This document shows positions 4,976 to 59,445 of a stretch of 64,000 nt of DNA, one piece after another (positions within the stretch are counted from its first letter, which is position 1; each line of letters opens with the position of its first letter). The notes beneath the pieces were generated by a model, which was not told the DNA's origin, searched no databases, and was given only the letters and a program-made list of their open reading frames with translations. The position numbers and the translations under genes were made by a program. This stretch comes from Escherichia coli O157:H7 (lineage in GTDB: Bacteria; Pseudomonadota; Gammaproteobacteria; Enterobacterales; Enterobacteriaceae), in assembly GCF_013167455.1 (NCBI RefSeq), contig NZ_CP038328.1; one strand, 5' to 3'.

Positions 4976-6079
4976 ATGGACCGCATTATTCAATCACCGG
5001 GTAAATACATCCAGGGCGCTGATGTGATTAATCGTCTGGGCGAATACCTGAAGCCGCTGGCAGAACGCTGGTTAGTGGTGGGTGACAAATTTGTTTTAGG
5101 TTTTGCTCAATCCACTGTCGAGAAAAGCTTTAAAGATGCTGGACTGGTAGTAGAGATTGCGCCGTTTGGCGGTGAATGTTCGCAAAATGAGATCGACCGT
5201 CTGCGTGGCATCGCGGAGACTGCGCAGTGTGGCGCAATTCTCGGTATCGGTGGCGGAAAAACCCTCGATACAGCCAAAGCACTGGCACATTTCATGGGTG
5301 TTCCGGTCGCCATTGCCCCGACCATTGCTTCAACCGACGCACCTTGTAGCGCTCTTTCCGTTATCTACACTGACGAAGGTGAATTTGACCGCTATCTGCT
5401 GCTGCCAAATAACCCGAATATGGTGATTGTCGATACTAAAATCGTCGCGGGCGCACCTGCGCGTCTGTTAGCGGCGGGTATCGGCGATGCGCTGGCGACC
5501 TGGTTTGAAGCGCGTGCCTGCTCTCGTAGCGGTGCGACCACCATGGCGGGCGGCAAGTGCACTCAGGCGGCGCTGGCGCTGGCTGAACTGTGCTACAACA
5601 CCTTGCTGGAAGAAGGCGAAAAAGCGATGCTCGCCGCCGAACAGCATGTAGTGACTCCGGCACTGGAACGCGTGATTGAAGCGAACACTTATTTAAGCGG
5701 TGTTGGCTTTGAAAGCGGTGGTCTGGCGGCAGCGCACGCGGTGCATAATGGCCTGACTGCCATTCCTGATGCCCATCACTATTATCACGGTGAAAAAGTG
5801 GCATTTGGTACACTGACGCAGCTGGTACTGGAAAACTCGCCGGTTGAGGAAATCGAAACCGTAGCTGCGCTTAGCCATGCGGTAGGTTTGCCAATAACTC
5901 TCGCTCAACTGGATATTAAAGAAGATGTCCCGGCGAAAATGCGAATTGTGGCAGAAGCGGCATGTGCAGAAGGTGAAACCATCCACAACATGCCTGGCGG
6001 CGCGACGCCAGATCAGGTTTACGCCGCTCTGCTGGTAGCCGACCAGTACGGTCAGCGTTTCCTGCAAGAGTGGGAATAA
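4976..6079 (+). CDS. gldA: Glycerol dehydrogenase
   Basis: Start trimmed to [17 protein letters not shown] (367 aa); iron-containing alcohol dehydrogenase family; synteny. Confidence 0.9.
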
Positions 6080-6087
6080 CCTACTCC

Positions 6088-6112
6088 AAACTCCCGGCTT
6101 GTCCGGGAGTTT
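6088..6112 (+). terminator. Intrinsic terminator downstream of gldA
   Basis: Inverted repeat ctcccgg-cttgt-ccgggag followed by a short T-run, immediately after the gldA stop. Confidence 0.55.
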
Positions 6113-6124
6113 GAACGCAAAATT

Positions 6125-6223
6125 GCCTGATGCGCTACGCTTATCAGGCCTACGCAATCTCTGCAATATATTGAATTTGCGTGCTTTTTAGGCCAGATAA
6201 GACGTTCACGCCGCATCCGGCAC
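6125..6223. repeat. REP/BIME palindromic elements
   Basis: gcctgatgcgctacgcttatcaggcctac and ggccagataagacgttcacgccgcatccggcac match the E. coli REP consensus. Confidence 0.8.
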
Positions 6224-11473: not shown

Positions 11474-11743
11474 AAGGAAAAGCCGAAGGGCGTCAACCGA
11501 AAAATGACCAATGATGGTGAGGAAAAATCAGGGAAGATGAAAAAACTTCAGGATGGTAAGAAAAAGAAAATCCGGTATGCAAAGCAAACCGGACTGCAAA
11601 TATAAACTAACCATGTACTTATTGCTTCTTGCCGGATTCGTCGTAAACGCTTCATCCGGCCTAATCCTATGATAATTCAATATATTTCATTAGAAACCAT
11701 AAACCCGAAAACATGAGTACCGGGCATTATTAAATTTCTGAAA

Positions 11744-27045: not shown

Positions 27046-27113
27046 TAATTGCATTATGCCCCGTACTTTTGTACGGGGTTTGTACTCTGTATTCGTAACC
27101 AAGGGGTCAGCTC

Positions 27114-27644
27114 GTGACAACTATAGTAAGCGTACGCCGTAACGGCCATGTGGTCATCGCTGGTGATGGTCAGGCCACGTTGGGCAATACCGTAATGAAA
27201 GGCAACGTGAAAAAGGTCCGCCGTCTGTACAACGACAAAGTCATCGCGGGCTTTGCGGGCGGTACTGCGGATGCTTTTACGCTGTTCGAACTGTTTGAAC
27301 GTAAACTGGAAATGCATCAGGGCCATCTGGTCAAAGCCGCCGTTGAGCTGGCAAAAGACTGGCGTACCGATCGCATGTTGCGCAAACTTGAAGCACTGCT
27401 GGCAGTCGCGGATGAAACTGCATCGCTTATCATCACCGGTAACGGTGACGTGGTGCAGCCAGAAAACGATCTTATTGCTATCGGCTCCGGCGGCCCTTAC
27501 GCCCAGGCTGCGGCGCGTGCACTGTTAGAAAATACTGAACTTAGTGCTCGTGAAATTGCTGAAAAGGCGTTGGATATTGCAGGCGACATTTGCATCTATA
27601 CCAACCATTTCCACACCATCGAAGAATTAAGCTACAAAGCGTAA
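27114..27644 (+). CDS. hslV: ATP-dependent protease subunit HslV
   Basis: 176-aa ORF (GTG start) [31 protein letters not shown]... Confidence 0.95.
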
Positions 27645-30070: not shown

Positions 30071-30556
30071 ATGAAATACGATACTTCCGAGCTTTGTGAC
30101 ATCTATCAAGAAGATGTTAACGTCGTGGAACCGCTGTTCTCCAACTTTGGCGGACGGGCGTCGTTTGGCGGACAAATAATCACGGTAAAATGTTTCGAGG
30201 ACAACGGGTTGCTGTACGATCTGCTCGAACAGAATGGCCGTGGTCGTGTTCTTGTCGTCGATGGCGGTGGTTCTGTTCGTCGCGCACTGGTCGATGCTGA
30301 ACTGGCGCGTCTGGCAGTACAAAATGAATGGGAAGGTCTGGTCATTTACGGCGCGGTGCGTCAGGTAGATGACCTGGAAGAGTTGGATATCGGCATCCAG
30401 GCGATGGCGGCAATTCCGGTTGGTGCCGCTGGCGAAGGCATTGGCGAAAGCGATGTCCGCGTCAATTTTGGCGGTGTTACCTTCTTCTCCGGCGACCATC
30501 TTTATGCCGACAATACCGGGATTATTCTTTCAGAAGATCCGCTGGATATTGAATAA
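30071..30556 (+). CDS. rraA: RNase E inhibitor RraA
   Basis: 161-aa [49 protein letters not shown]... Confidence 0.95.
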
Positions 30557-30572
30557 GTATCTGCCATGCGTT

Positions 30573-30600
30573 AAAAGGGGAATTAAATTCCCCTTTTTTA
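30573..30600 (+). terminator. Intrinsic terminator of rraA
   Basis: aaaaggggaattaaattcccctttttta, a perfect hairpin with flanking A/T runs. Confidence 0.75.
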
Positions 30601-30603
30601 TAC

Positions 30604-31290
30604 ATGGACGTATTCATGCAGAATATTATTCTTTTATTTATATATTTATTACTTATAGCCGTTAACCATTTCCGCTACAAATTTCTTTTATCTGGCAACG
30701 CGGGTGAAATGATTTTATATTTTGCTAACGTATTTTTTAACCCACTTGCCTTATCATTTATTATCGCCACAATCATCTGTATAACGATAAAAAAAAGAAG
30801 CAGCCGCAGCTTTATTCGCGGCACTTGTTGGTTAATGGGATTATTTCTTATCTATAGCAGCTATACGGTGTGGGAACGACACAGCATATGGGATTATACT
30901 TTCCCGGAGCCAGGTATCACCGTCACGGTTCCGAGCAAACAGTGGGTTGCCAATATAGTAAAACAAGGACCAACCCTGGTGACCCGGGATGCCCATGCTA
31001 TTTTAGCTATTGTTGCCTTCTCACAAAATGAACTCGGTGTGCATTCAATCGAGGAACTTACCGCGACTCAAAACGGAACTGCAGAAATGCATGTTTGTGA
31101 TGTTCAGGGATTTGCCTGCGCTTATCAGGAAGGAGTGCAAACAATGAGTGATGGCAAAGTAAGACATGCTATTTTCATGACTCTACTGGATAACACTAAT
31201 TTGATACAACTGGTCGCAGCTATCGACCCAGATTATTTGGACGAATATCAAGAAGAAGTAATGAAAATGATGCTTTCTGCTCGTCAATGA
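30604..31290 (+). CDS. Hypothetical membrane-anchored protein, paralog 1 (unknown function)
   Basis: 228-aa ORF (alternative start at 30616) with about 3 N-terminal TM helices and a roughly 140-aa soluble domain; alignable with the downstream ORF (FIRGTCW/FTRGCCW, W-YTF...I(T/S)VTVP, C-x6-C-xYQ, C-terminal (K/E)(M/I)MLSA). Confidence 0.7.
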   Translation: MDVFMQNIILLFIYLLLIAVNHFRYKFLLSGNAGEMILYFANVFFNPLALSFIIATIICITIKKRSSRSFIRGTCWLMGLFLIYSSYTVWERHSIWDYTFPEPGITVTVPSKQWVANIVKQGPTLVTRDAHAILAIVAFSQNELGVHSIEELTATQNGTAEMHVCDVQGFACAYQEGVQTMSDGKVRHAIFMTLLDNTNLIQLVAAIDPDYLDEYQEEVMKMMLSARQ

Positions 31291-31322
31291 TCTGATGTGC
31301 ATGTTAATAATAATGGATTGAT

Positions 31323-32039
31323 ATGAGATACGTTATCTTATTAATACTATGGATAATAACTGTTTTTCTTAGTCATCTTCAGCACAGTAACTTGCTTACT
31401 GGAGATCCAGGGATGGTTGGCGAGTATATCGGTTCAGTACTTCTTGGACCGTTATTACTTCCCGTGCTTGTGTCAGGTATTCTGTGCACATTCACTAAAA
31501 AAACGCGTAACTTCGCCAGTTTTACTCGCGGGTGCTGTTGGGTATTGGGAGTCCTGCTTTTATCCAACGTCGGCAATACGTTTCGTCTGTTCACCCCGTG
31601 GCACTATACGTTTGAGAAGGCAGCTATTTCCGTGACTGTCCCAAACCGACACTGGAATACGGTTTCTATTAGTACTGATAAAACCATTGATATAAGAAGT
31701 GAAGATAATAGCGTCTTTATTTCTGCTTTCCGCCTGCCCGCAGGACGTAGCGCCGATGACTCGCTGGAAGAGTTAAAGAAGATGCAGCGAGACAATCTCA
31801 AGGATCAATACAATGAAGAAACCTTCCAGTTTCATGATTGTAATGCCAAACATTTCACCTGTAAGTATCAGGATGTGTTGATAAATTTTGATGGTCAGCA
31901 GAAAAGAACCATCAGTGTTTATCTTGAAGACACCCCCAGGGCTGTGGGGATCATTGCATTAATGGAGCCAGATACGGCAGATAAATATCGCCAACAGGCG
32001 ATGGAGATTATGTTGTCTGCTAAAAATACAGTGAAGTAA
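31323..32039 (+). CDS. Hypothetical membrane-anchored protein, paralog 2 (unknown function)
   Basis: 238-aa ORF MRYVILLILWIITVFLSHL... with the same TM plus soluble-domain architecture and shared motifs as the upstream ORF. Confidence 0.7.
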   Translation: MRYVILLILWIITVFLSHLQHSNLLTGDPGMVGEYIGSVLLGPLLLPVLVSGILCTFTKKTRNFASFTRGCCWVLGVLLLSNVGNTFRLFTPWHYTFEKAAISVTVPNRHWNTVSISTDKTIDIRSEDNSVFISAFRLPAGRSADDSLEELKKMQRDNLKDQYNEETFQFHDCNAKHFTCKYQDVLINFDGQQKRTISVYLEDTPRAVGIIALMEPDTADKYRQQAMEIMLSAKNTVK

Positions 32040-32044
32040 AAAAT

Positions 32045-32063
32045 AAGGCGCCTTGCGGCGCCT
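32045..32063. terminator. Bidirectional intrinsic terminator between paralog 2 and zapB
   Basis: aaggcgccttgcggcgcct hairpin lying between the convergent paralog-2 and zapB stops. Confidence 0.6.
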
Positions 32064-32077
32064 CTGCGTGGAAGAGA

Positions 32078-32386
<309 letters not shown>

Positions 32387-35146: not shown

Positions 35147-35252
35147 GCCTGATGCTGATCGCCTGATGCGACGCTTACGCGTCTTATCAGGCCTACGAGC
35201 CAATGCCATTTTGTGTAGGCGGGATAAGGCGTTCACGCCGCATCCGGCATCA
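35147..35252. repeat. REP/BIME palindromic elements downstream of glpK
   Basis: gcctgatgcgacgcttacgcgtcttatcaggcctac and ggcgggataaggcgttcacgccgcatccggca REP units. Confidence 0.8.
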
Positions 35253-52360: not shown

Positions 52361-53197
52361 TTATTGCAGAAAGCCATCCCGTCCCTGACGAATATCACGC
52401 GGTGACCAGTTAAACTCTCGGCGAAAAAGCGTCGAAAAGTGGTTACTGTCGCTGAATCCGCAATGATAGGCGATGTCAGTAACGCTGGCCTCGCTGTGAC
52501 GTAGCAGATGTCGGGCTTTCATCAGTCGCAGGCGATTCAGGTATCGCTGAGGCGTCAGTCCCGTTTGCTGCTTAAGCTGCCGATGTAGCGTACGCAGTGA
52601 AAGAGAAAATTGATCCGCCACGGCATCCCAATTCACCTCATCGGCAAAATGGTCCTCCAGCCAGGCCAGAAGCAAGTTGAGACGTGATGCGCTGTTTTCC
52701 AGGTTCTCCTGCAAACTGCTTTTACGCAGCAAGAGCAGTAATTGCATAAACAAGATCTCGCGACTGGCGGTCGAGGGTAAATCATTTTCCCCTTCCTGCT
52801 GTTCCATCTGTGCAACCAGCTGTCGCACCTGCTGCAATACGCTGTGGTTAACGCGCCAGTGAGACGGATACTGCCCATCCAGCTCTTGTGGCAGCAACTG
52901 ATTCAGTCCGGCGAGAAACTGAAATCGATCCGGCGAGCGATACAGCACATTAGTCAGACACAGATTATCGGTATGTTCATACAGATGCCGATCATGGTCG
53001 CGCACAAAACAGACCGTGCCACCGGTGATGGTATAGGGCTGCCCATTAAACACATGAATACCCGTGCCATGTTCGACAATCACAATTTCATGAAAATCAT
53101 GATGATGTTCAGGAAAATCCGCCTGCGGGAGCCGGGGTTCTATCGCCACGGACGCGTTACCAGACGGAAAAAAATCCACACTATGTAATACGGTCAT
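52361..53197 (-). CDS. rhaS: AraC-family activator RhaS
   Basis: 278-aa [47 protein letters not shown]... Confidence 0.95.
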
Positions 53198-53340: not shown

Positions 53341-56210
<2,870 letters not shown>

Positions 56211-56215
56211 ACACT

Positions 56216-56345
56216 GCCGGATGCGGCACAAGTGCCTTATCCGGCCTACAGGCCGGCAATAGTTGTAGGCCTGATAAGACGCGACAGCGTCGCATCAGGC
56301 ATTGATTGCCGGATGCGGCACGAGCGCCTTATCCGGCCTACGGGT
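56216..56345. repeat. REP/BIME cluster between rhaA and rhaD
   Basis: Three REP units (gccggatgcggcacaagtgccttatccggcctac; gtaggcctgataagacgcgacagcgtcgcatcaggc; gccggatgcggcacgagcgccttatccggcctac). Confidence 0.85.
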
Positions 56346-57533: not shown

Positions 57534-57573
57534 TGAGTTGCGGTGCCGGAAAATATCCAGCACCGCGACTTCA

Positions 57574-58968
57574 TCAGAAGAAGTATTTAAAGCGAACGCG
57601 TGCGCCGTAACGGTCATCAGTATCATCACCGTGTTTTTTATCGCCGTCGCTATCCAGAATGGAGTAATACGTCCCGAGGTAAATATTAAAGTTCTCCATA
57701 TCCATCACGTTAGCGAACTGATAAGACGCATGAATGGTGTGAATGGTGTACGTCCCTTCATCATCAATGCAGCAGTCGTTATCACAAACTACACCGCTGA
57801 ATTCATCAATCTTATTGTGCGCGTAGATATAACCGAGCTCGAAACGTTTCCACAGCGCGTTAATCCCGGCAGTGAAATCTTTCTCATTATTAGCATCTAA
57901 ATAGGCGGTATTTAGATTAACCACAATGCCATTGTCCGGATCCGTTTTCAGGCCGTTCCAGGTCATGCTCATACCATAGCCGGTACGATCGGACTGATCG
58001 ACAAAATTACCCTTGCTATCGGTATAACCATAAGCATTATTTACCACGTTCGCTTCCATCGCTGCGGAAACGGTGAATTCTTCCGTCGGCGACCAGGCAA
58101 TTACTGGGCGCAGATAAGCAACATTTTTCTGCTGCTCCATATCGCGTCCATGATAATTACCGTCATTATATAAAGATGTTCCGTCTTCAAGTAACGTGTT
58201 TAATTCAAAATACCAGTTATCGAGTTGTTTGCTGACGAGGAAATTACCGCCAGCGTTAGAGCGCCCGCGGCCCTCTTTCATCATATAGATATAACCGCTG
58301 CCATCGTCATAAAGATCGTTCGCAGTATTACCGGAATGTTCAACAAAGGTATCCTGATTCAATGGGAACATATCGTAGGCTTCAAAACGGCCTACTTTGA
58401 CCTTCCAGTCGTTTTCTTTGCCAAAGAAGAATACCGCATCATCGATATTTACTGAACCGTGCATATCACCCAGCGGTTGTGCGGAGAACCCGGCGAAATA
58501 ACCGTTGTCCATCTTTCGCATACCGTCAAAACCTAACAGAATACGACCATTGAGATTCCACTGTTCATTAGTGGGATCGCTATTCACATCAGCGTTGGTC
58601 ATTGCCAGCAGGCCATGATTACTTTCCGCATCCATATTAAATTCTACGTCGCCGTAGATTTTTAAATCGCCATAACCTGAAAGCAAAAGATTAGGTGAGG
58701 TGGCATTTTTCTTTGCAGATTCCGCCGTTGCCTGTCCATTTACCGGCGTATTGCCCTGAGCGGCCTTAATTTCGCGGATCTCAGCGGCTTGTTGTGTCTG
58801 CAGCTGTTTAACCTGGCTCTCTGCTTTTGCCGCCCGCATTTCTGCCGCTTCCAGGCGTTCTTCCAGCAATGCCATGCGTTGTTCCAGCATTAAATGCTGT
58901 GTTTTTGCCATACCGGTACTACATGCCAATAATAAACCGATGGCTAAAGATAATGTCGATTTTTTCAT
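57574..58968 (-). CDS. Putative outer-membrane carbohydrate-selective porin with N-terminal coiled-coil extension
   Basis: 464-aa ORF; signal peptide MKKSTLSLAIGLLLACSTGMA; coiled-coil-like segment LEQRMALLEERLEAAEMRAAKAESQVKQLQTQQAAEIREIKAAQ; Gly/Tyr/Asn-rich beta-strand-like body; C-terminal ...RFKYFF typical of beta-barrel OMPs. Not at this position in K-12 as I recall. Confidence 0.65.
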   Translation of the reverse strand: MKKSTLSLAIGLLLACSTGMAKTQHLMLEQRMALLEERLEAAEMRAAKAESQVKQLQTQQAAEIREIKAAQGNTPVNGQATAESAKKNATSPNLLLSGYGDLKIYGDVEFNMDAESNHGLLAMTNADVNSDPTNEQWNLNGRILLGFDGMRKMDNGYFAGFSAQPLGDMHGSVNIDDAVFFFGKENDWKVKVGRFEAYDMFPLNQDTFVEHSGNTANDLYDDGSGYIYMMKEGRGRSNAGGNFLVSKQLDNWYFELNTLLEDGTSLYNDGNYHGRDMEQQKNVAYLRPVIAWSPTEEFTVSAAMEANVVNNAYGYTDSKGNFVDQSDRTGYGMSMTWNGLKTDPDNGIVVNLNTAYLDANNEKDFTAGINALWKRFELGYIYAHNKIDEFSGVVCDNDCCIDDEGTYTIHTIHASYQFANVMDMENFNIYLGTYYSILDSDGDKKHGDDTDDRYGARVRFKYFF

Positions 58969-59445
58969 TATTTACGTTCCCTGAAATAAAGGAGACCCTA
59001 CGCTTTCCAAAAGGAATACGTATATAGAGAAATATAAGGTGTGCACTTTCGAATTTTTAATCCAACTTCAGCAGGCCGATGGATAGTATCCCGCCGCATA
59101 ATATGAGTAAATCCGCTGATTTCCTGGAACGTGAGGAATATAACAATAGTGCCGTTTTTAACTAAATATCGTAAAAAATATTAGATATGATTCAAGCTGG
59201 CTCATAAGCCACAAATATAAATAACGTTTAGACAAATTATCTGAGACATTTAAACATTCACAAAATCATTAAATAATAACTCTTTATTCACAAGATTTAT
59301 TTTACCTACTAATATGTGCCTTACGCCGCAAAATTTATCCTTCACTCTGCTTTATATTGTCACGACTTCACGACATATCCGCGCTCATCACAAACCCGCC
59401 CCGCTATTACAATTAACTGAAATATTTTTTCATGGAGTCCGATTA

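Follow-up and report, generated by a model that had tools for sequence, protein, structure and literature searches.

What are the palindromic sequences that occupy the interval between rhaA and rhaD in this stretch of DNA, what would they do there, and what can they tell about the origin of the DNA around them? The window, namely the whole stretch of 64,000 nucleotides that was analyzed, had been described from the sequence alone in an earlier note, which listed REP palindromes at five intergenic sites, including the one behind rhaA, took them as confirmation of an E. coli origin, and took their absence from three putative insertions as consistent with foreign DNA. REP/BIME elements have been known since 1984; in RefSeq, K-12 and PV15-279 currently carry no annotated REP features.

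From end to end, the window corresponds to the reverse strand of NZ_AP018488.1 (E. coli O157:H7 PV15-279) at 4984433–5048432, with 99.97% identity over 64 kb, differing from it by 20 substitutions and two 1-nt indels. In BLAST, the 1-kb segment around the focal cluster, whose genes are rhaA and rhaD, matches many E. coli O157:H7 chromosomes at 100% identity. We moved the PV15-279 annotation base by base onto the window, from pflD to frvR, and found correct start and stop codons for all transferred genes. By these sequence comparisons, the annotation of the window as E. coli O157:H7, pflD to frvR, is firm. Both indels are located in the RHS dsORF-f3 region (17508–17830), a small ORF downstream of rhsC, at 17581 and 17685, where the window has one additional base each; the PV15-279 record labels that ORF as frameshifted. 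In the rha region, rhaT (50408–51442, +), the gene of the rhamnose/proton symporter, is cut short by a premature stop at codon 51 (about 50558–50560) and is a pseudogene, as in PV15-279. The neighboring rhaS (52361–53197, minus strand) is intact in the window and marked as a pseudogene in the PV15-279 record, a difference that results from a G/T substitution at 52773. Rfam matches above threshold were also seen, in the expected places, for the ClpQY (hslVU) heat-shock promoter element at 27059–27116 (+), upstream of hslV, and for the L31 (rpmE) ribosomal-protein leader at 22395–22447 (–), upstream of rpmE.

REP units were searched for by two independent scans, one by edit distance to the published Y, Z1, and Z2 consensus sequences with at most 20% errors, and the other by nhmmer with profiles made from K-12 units. 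Both scans agree on 11 full-length units at five sites, with 0–5 errors over 29–36 nt and E values of 1e-9 to 1e-12. At the same threshold, the edit-distance scan of 10 Markov-1 random windows gave no hits. A strict IUPAC pattern, in which a 5-nt loop and Z2-like stem positions were forced, had no match in 100 shuffles and caught only one unit in the window, so that it is not evidence of absence elsewhere. At the permissive end, with 10 errors allowed, the short Z1 consensus matches about 190 places across coding sequence; matches of this kind, including those in the islands, were rejected as noise. Given the agreement of the two scans and the empty controls, it is virtually certain that these elements are REP/BIME elements. 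All five sites listed in the earlier note indeed hold canonical units of types Y, Z1, and Z2, and the ranges given for them are correct to within a few bases. The list itself is incomplete by two weaker elements. One is a degenerate Y-type REP at 11631–11663 (+; 6 errors; nhmmer E 6.3e-5; hairpin –11.6 kcal/mol) downstream of metL (3′ end 11744), which retains the lower stem, has a decayed upper stem and the tag CTAA, and has an orthologous copy in K-12. The other is a 17-nt fragment downstream of sodA at 49464–49480 (+), a probable REP remnant comprising the upper stem and loop of a Y unit, which weakly matches positions 6–22 of the Y profile (E 0.0037) and has 10 errors when scored at full length.

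The focal cluster, at 56216–56341, is a three-unit BIME-2 of the arrangement Y> <Z2 Y>. It starts 5 nt past the stop codon of rhaA (TAA, 56208–56210), ends 43 nt before the start codon of rhaD (56385), and is inside the rhaBAD operon and its transcript. The first Y unit (56216–56249, +; 5 errors; nhmmer E 9e-12) folds at –20.0 kcal/mol into a hairpin that has a CTAC tail and retains the conserved internal mismatch. It is joined tail-to-tail, by the 15-nt linker AGGCCGGCAATAGTT (56250–56264), to a Z2 unit (56265–56300, –; 1 error; E 4e-12; hairpin –21.4 kcal/mol) that is inverted against the flanking Y units, and the 7-nt head-to-head linker ATTGATT (56301–56307) connects this unit to the last Y unit (56308–56341, +; 3 errors; E 5e-12). 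The region of 56308–56341 is a direct repeat of 56197–56255 at a spacing of 92 nt, equal to one Y–Z2 period, and in the arrays of K-12 and XJ34 the same 15-nt linker is found in each 92-nt period. The 189-nt intercistronic RNA has a predicted fold of –80.9 kcal/mol against –60.9 ± 4.4 kcal/mol for shuffled sequences (z = –4.6), in which the first Y unit is a separate hairpin and Z2 is folded with the second Y into a single long one. No promoter consensus was found in the rhaA–rhaD spacer. We rejected the idea that the rha palindromes are ordinary intrinsic terminators, given that the spacer has neither a T-run nor an intrinsic-terminator-like site.

Two further clusters are also of the Y/Z2, BIME-2 type, each a single pair. 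In the convergent spacer between cpxA and yiiM, the Y unit (47343–47376, –; 2 errors; E 5e-12) lies 11 nt past the cpxA stop (47329–47331), and the Z2 unit placed head-to-head with it (47390–47426, +; 3 errors) fits the strict pattern, for which chance predicts 0 matches, and extends to 10 nt from the yiiM stop (47437–47439, minus strand). A small hairpin, GCGGAGT-TAA-ACTCCGC, carries the cpxA stop codon TAA in its loop and has ATTTGT behind it; located directly before the Y unit (47320–47342), it brings the number of structures within 50 nt of the stop to two. Between glpK and glpX, a Z2 unit (35161–35196, +; 2 errors; E 6.5e-11) located 35 nt past the glpK stop is joined tail-to-tail, through an 18-nt linker, to a Y unit (35215–35248, –; 1 error). 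A 9-nt duplicate of a REP head, GCCTGATGC, at 35147–35155, 5 nt upstream of this Z2 unit, could be the scar of an earlier unit or of an insertion event.

The clusters at gldA–yijF (6125–6221) and pfkA–sbp (42265–42362) have an inverted Y–L–Z1 arrangement and belong to the BIME-1 type. At gldA–yijF, the Z1 unit (6125–6153, +; 0 errors; E 2e-10) lies 45 nt past the gldA stop (6077–6079), just beyond a terminator-like hairpin at about 6090–6112, and is followed by a 34-nt L linker (6154–6187) and a Y unit (6188–6221, –; 3 errors; E 1.6e-9) in which the GTAG tag is changed to TTAG (...GGCCTAA). At pfkA–sbp, a Y unit (42265–42298, +; 1 error; E 1.4e-12), a 35-nt L linker (42299–42333), and a Z1 unit (42334–42362, –; 1 error; E 6e-10) are located between pfkA (stop and 3′ end at 42419, 56 nt away) and sbp (5′ end at 42100), both on the minus strand. 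The description of the cluster at 42264–42365 as lying after sbp holds in position only; in terms of transcription, it is downstream of pfkA and upstream of sbp.

Regarding placement, the six REP-bearing spacers comprise four tandem, two convergent, and no divergent ones, and no unit is found in coding sequence; location on the 3′ side of genes is a known habit of REPs. All 12 units, the degenerate one behind metL included, fold canonically with an eight-pair lower stem, one mismatch, and an upper stem, as in ((((((((.((((....)))).)))))))) or the Z1/Z2 equivalent. Across 15 Y units from the window and other strains, 95% of the cells are paired in the proposed register, versus 31%–43% in slid registers, and the rha-specific Y units carry one compensatory change, from a G–C to an A–U pair. 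The GTAG tag (a CTAC tail on the other strand) is kept in 10 of the 12 units, the exceptions at 6188–6221 and 11631–11663 reading TTAG. Without this tag, the REP-associated transposase of E. coli (TnpA-REP) does not recognize a unit, as described in PMC8266576, which also gives the REP definition and the y, z1, and z2 types. Since they have lost a tag needed by TnpA-REP, the two units are probably no longer substrates of the enzyme.

Two Rfam families have matches among the REP clusters. The Y/Z2 pairs of cpxA–yiiM and rhaA–rhaD match naRNA4 (RF02564) at 47346–47423 (+) with 78.6 bits and at 56268–56338 (–) with 73.3 bits, both beyond the gathering threshold of 59.5 bits, as would be the case if they encoded naRNA4-like nucleoid-associated RNAs acting with HU in chromosome condensation. 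The Rfam model is in effect a head-to-head Y/Z2 pair, however, so that any such pair matches it and the tail-to-tail glpK pair does not; in addition, the match at 56268–56338 is on the strand antisense to rhaBAD. REP325/naRNA4 itself is described as having no measurable effect on nucleoid compaction, with REP–REP contacts unseen (bioRxiv 10.64898/2026.03.23.713779). We thus consider an naRNA4-like function of these pairs very improbable and rejected it as the main explanation, as the match says "REP pair" and not "functional naRNA". The pfkA–sbp L linker gives a match to Rfam ES036 at 42300–42341 and is 83% complementary to the arm 6117–6188. The naRNA4 and ES036 matches are both cases of REP-derived Rfam families picking up REP sequence.

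What the units do is best read from the class to which they belong. With good confidence, we consider the elements of the window to be canonical REP/BIME elements of 3′ untranslated and intercistronic regions, the role of which can be inferred from that of other REPs. For the rha cluster, analogy slightly favors a dominant role at the RNA level, as a stabilizer and attenuator. The analogy is drawn above all from REP325, by which the message of the upstream gene, yjdM, is stabilized and transcription into the downstream gene is attenuated or terminated in a partially Rho-dependent manner (bioRxiv 10.64898/2026.03.23.713779). The same study found that, across the genome, expression is biased toward the upstream gene where REPs lie in tandem gene pairs and is higher for both genes where they lie between convergent ones, and that REP effects are context-dependent and sometimes absent. 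According to Liang, Rudd and Deutscher (2015), as cited in PMC12306157, REPs less than 16 nt past a stop codon reduce translation of the upstream gene. The distances between stop and REP in the window fall within this class for rhaA (5 nt), cpxA (11 nt), and yiiM (10 nt), and outside it for glpK (35 nt), gldA (45 nt), and pfkA (56 nt).

Accordingly arranged along the transcript, the putative mechanism would have three components. Once transcribed, the units would fold into stable RNA hairpins that block 3′-to-5′ exonucleases, so that the upstream message (rhaBA, cpxRA, glpFK, pfkA, and gldA) may be stabilized. They may also act as partial, largely Rho-dependent attenuators, which would reduce transcription of the genes downstream (rhaD–rhaM, glpX, and sbp). 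Finally, a hairpin less than 16 nt past the stop, as at rhaA, cpxA, and yiiM, could impede termination by the ribosome and cut the yield of the upstream protein.

The structure of the two kinds of cluster is also compatible with a role at the level of DNA, in which the Y/Z2 clusters of rha, cpxA, and glpK would be bound and cleaved by gyrase, absorbing transcription-driven supercoiling, and the Y–L–Z1 clusters of gldA and pfkA would be IHF sites. The architecture fits both classes, the former having Y and Z2 in alternation with short linkers between them and the latter Y/Z1 pairs with a 34–35-nt L linker. To our knowledge, it has never become clear what the binding of gyrase or IHF to BIMEs means for the physiology of the cell. 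The L linkers of gldA–yijF and pfkA–sbp align with each other, and both carry ATTCAATAWATTG, one mismatch away from WATCAANNNNTTR. The IHF-like core of pfkA–sbp is ATTCAATAAATTG at 42311–42323, with one mismatch to WATCAANNNNTTR, and that of gldA–yijF is ATTCAATATATTG at 6164–6176 on the minus strand, with one mismatch to the IHF consensus; by chance, the two linkers would together contain about 0.07 such one-mismatch cores. The exact IHF consensus has no match in any spacer. As far as cited in PMC12306157 and PMC8266576, gyrase binds BIME-2 and cleaves it (Espeli and Boccard 1997) and IHF binds to RIBs (Boccard and Prentki 1993). In contrast, the predominant effect of REPs in vivo is local control of transcripts (bioRxiv 10.64898/2026.03.23.713779). 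As the dominant role, binding of gyrase or IHF seems to us unlikely; it is compatible with stabilization and attenuation at the RNA level, and the two are not mutually exclusive.

The number of units at the rha site varies widely. At rhaA–rhaD, K-12 has nine units in a 450-nt spacer, versus three units in 174 nt in the window. We surveyed the spacer in a spread of 60 complete E. coli genomes, using only the flanking coding sequence as the query, and found two series of lengths, one of 82, 174/176, 266, 450, and 542 nt and another of 92, 276, 368, and 460 nt, together with two odd values, 241 and 263 nt. Among the sequenced examples are arrays of 1, 5, 7, and 11 units, which begin and end with a Y unit; the initial Y is invariably located 5 nt past the stop. 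In the sampled genomes, the cluster has 1, 3, 5, 7, 9, or 11 units, changing in 92-nt steps. In about 8 of the 60 genomes, a lone Y unit precedes an insert of about 160 nt whose inverted arms are GC-rich (of the type CCCTCACCCC...GGGGTGAGGG), an example being E. coli EC20-4B-2 with a 241-nt spacer; we take this insert to resemble the Box C repeats of E. coli.

Other sites vary as well. The glpK–glpX site occurs in three states, a full Z2/Y pair in the window, a Z2 unit with a remnant of the Y head in CFT073, and only a decayed Y unit in K-12; in the 60-genome spread, the full form of 229 nt is found only in O157-like genomes. At metJ–yiiX, K-12 has a perfect Y/Z1 (BIME-1) pair that is missing from the window spacer (15934–15992). 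In K-12, the loop of the hairpin that terminates metJ (AGCGGC...GCCGCTTTTTT) apparently contains this pair, whereas the hairpin is intact and uninterrupted in the window. The REP sites are thus polymorphic between lineages and are not a fixed backbone marker.

Such variation is what would be expected if the clusters were selfish or neutral passengers that depend on RayT, similar to REPIN pairs, with a copy number set by slippage or unequal crossing-over and no selected effect on their neighbors. The range of 1–11 units in exact 92-nt steps at rhaA–rhaD, the three states of decay at glpK–glpX, the absence of the K-12 metJ–yiiX pair from the window, the degenerate unit at 11631, the fragment at 49464, and the folding of the Z2/Y pair as one long REPIN-like hairpin all agree with this explanation. 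It accounts less readily for the first Y unit being precisely 5 nt past the rhaA stop in each allele examined, for the near-consensus sequence and pairing that the units retain, and for the published deletion of REP325, which alters expression of both flanking genes (bioRxiv 10.64898/2026.03.23.713779). On balance, purely passive carriage is a doubtful candidate; it is also compatible with the main reading, as selfish spread and a local effect on expression can coexist. In our model of REPs as RNA-level stabilizers and attenuators, the units would likewise be seeded or maintained by the single-copy RayT (TnpA-REP), and the copy number of a cluster would shift by unequal recombination or slippage between the 92-nt Y–Z2 periods. 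Full-length rayT is present with 92.8% identity in O157:H7 genomes (e.g., NZ_CP038336.1 and NZ_CP035366.1), and 3574 of 5426 E. coli genomes carry rayT; the gene lies outside the window. Action of RayT on K-12 REPs comes from in vitro work (PMC8266576).

Extending the preferred RNA-level role, one may speculate that the rhaA–rhaD cluster is a strain-variable rheostat, in which the number of units would set the ratio of rhaBA to rhaD–rhaM and the yield of RhaA stepwise, copy-number alleles, the three-unit O157:H7 form among them, would be selected rather than drifting, and gain, loss, and decay of REPs, as at glpK–glpX and metJ–yiiX, would often give rise to heritable expression differences between E. 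coli lineages. We think this improbable as it stands. As for the RNA-level role itself, the range of 1–11 units could equally mean that there is little constraint, and selection on the rha system may be relaxed in the O157:H7 lineage, given the premature stop of rhaT in the window. The natural allelic series at rha, from 1 to 11 units, could nevertheless be used to test the current stabilizer/attenuator model of REP function.

As for the origin of the DNA, the REPs are less telling than had been thought. The exact Y pattern including the CTAC/GTAG tail is found, among the matches listed, in many copies in Escherichia albertii, Citrobacter werkmanii, and Pseudocitrobacter faecalis, which contradicts the claim that REPs confirm an E. 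coli origin. Judged from these matches, REPs point to this group of Enterobacteriaceae and not to E. coli specifically, and it is the BLAST identity that settles the origin. Within 842–1377 of one locus, Pseudocitrobacter faecalis has at least six exact Y-pattern matches on one strand, about 100 nt apart from each other, a sign of a large tandem BIME array in a genus other than Escherichia. Exact Y-type REPs also occur, among the matches listed, in a 262-nt contig of Desulfosporosinus sp. OT and in a contig of a Bacteroidales MAG; their presence in assemblies of Desulfosporosinus, a Firmicute, and of Bacteroidales is likely due to contamination with enterobacterial DNA.

Alignment against K-12 revealed three insertions in the window, at 16603–22122 (IS1 and rhsC), 30555–32081 (two hypothetical genes), and 57535–59312 (a porin gene). 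The Rhs/IS1 island and the two AT-rich islets were scanned for REPs, and the statement that these are absent there stands: neither scan gave a full-length unit in any of the three, the best hits being partial matches of 13–14 nt (E 0.15–0.41) in coding sequence. The conclusion drawn from this absence does not follow. Counting spacers of at least 30 nt (n = 42), six are REP-bearing and eight touch insertions, so that a complete miss is common by chance. The probability of finding no REP in the insertion spacers is 0.26, or 0.20 without divergent spacers and 0.36–0.42 when weighted by non-coding length. With chance alone giving a P of about 0.2–0.4, the absence adds essentially nothing as a sign of foreign DNA. 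At the scale of a single 64-kb window, the lack of REPs inside a segment is unfit as evidence for foreign DNA, the test being powerless there. The accessory status of the three segments is seen directly in the K-12 alignment and does not come from REPs.

In comparison with known systems, the REPs of the window are ordinary and already catalogued, and the rha cluster already has a name in K-12, where the rhaA–rhaD array within rhaBAD is REP299a-i in the EcoCyc nomenclature (bioRxiv 10.1101/2024.07.17.603846). Sequence comparison identifies the focal cluster as the three-unit O157:H7 allele of this nine-unit array. The two share the orthologous position, with the first Y unit 5 nt past the rhaA stop and the distal flank up to rhaD, as well as the Y and Z2 sequences, including the rha-specific upper stem GGCAC..GTGCC, and the 15-nt and 7-nt linkers; they differ in that the window has three 92-nt Y–Z2 periods fewer. 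REP325 of yjdM–yjdN, the source of naRNA4 (RF02564), is likewise an array within an operon in which Y and Z2 units alternate, and is the best-studied functional analogue, whereas it has 12 units and its proposed naRNA4 role with HU in the nucleoid is disputed (bioRxiv 10.64898/2026.03.23.713779). The clusters at gldA–yijF and pfkA–sbp resemble BIME-1/RIB/RIP elements, each with one Y and one Z1 unit inverted around a 34–35-nt L linker that contains a candidate IHF core; they differ in that these cores are one mismatch off WATCAANNNNTTR and that the Y unit at 6188 has no GTAG tag. The REPIN–RAYT systems of Pseudomonas fluorescens and others share with the present elements the inverted doublets that form one long hairpin and a single-copy rayT in the lineage, whereas the clusters of E. 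coli are often tandem arrays rather than isolated doublets.
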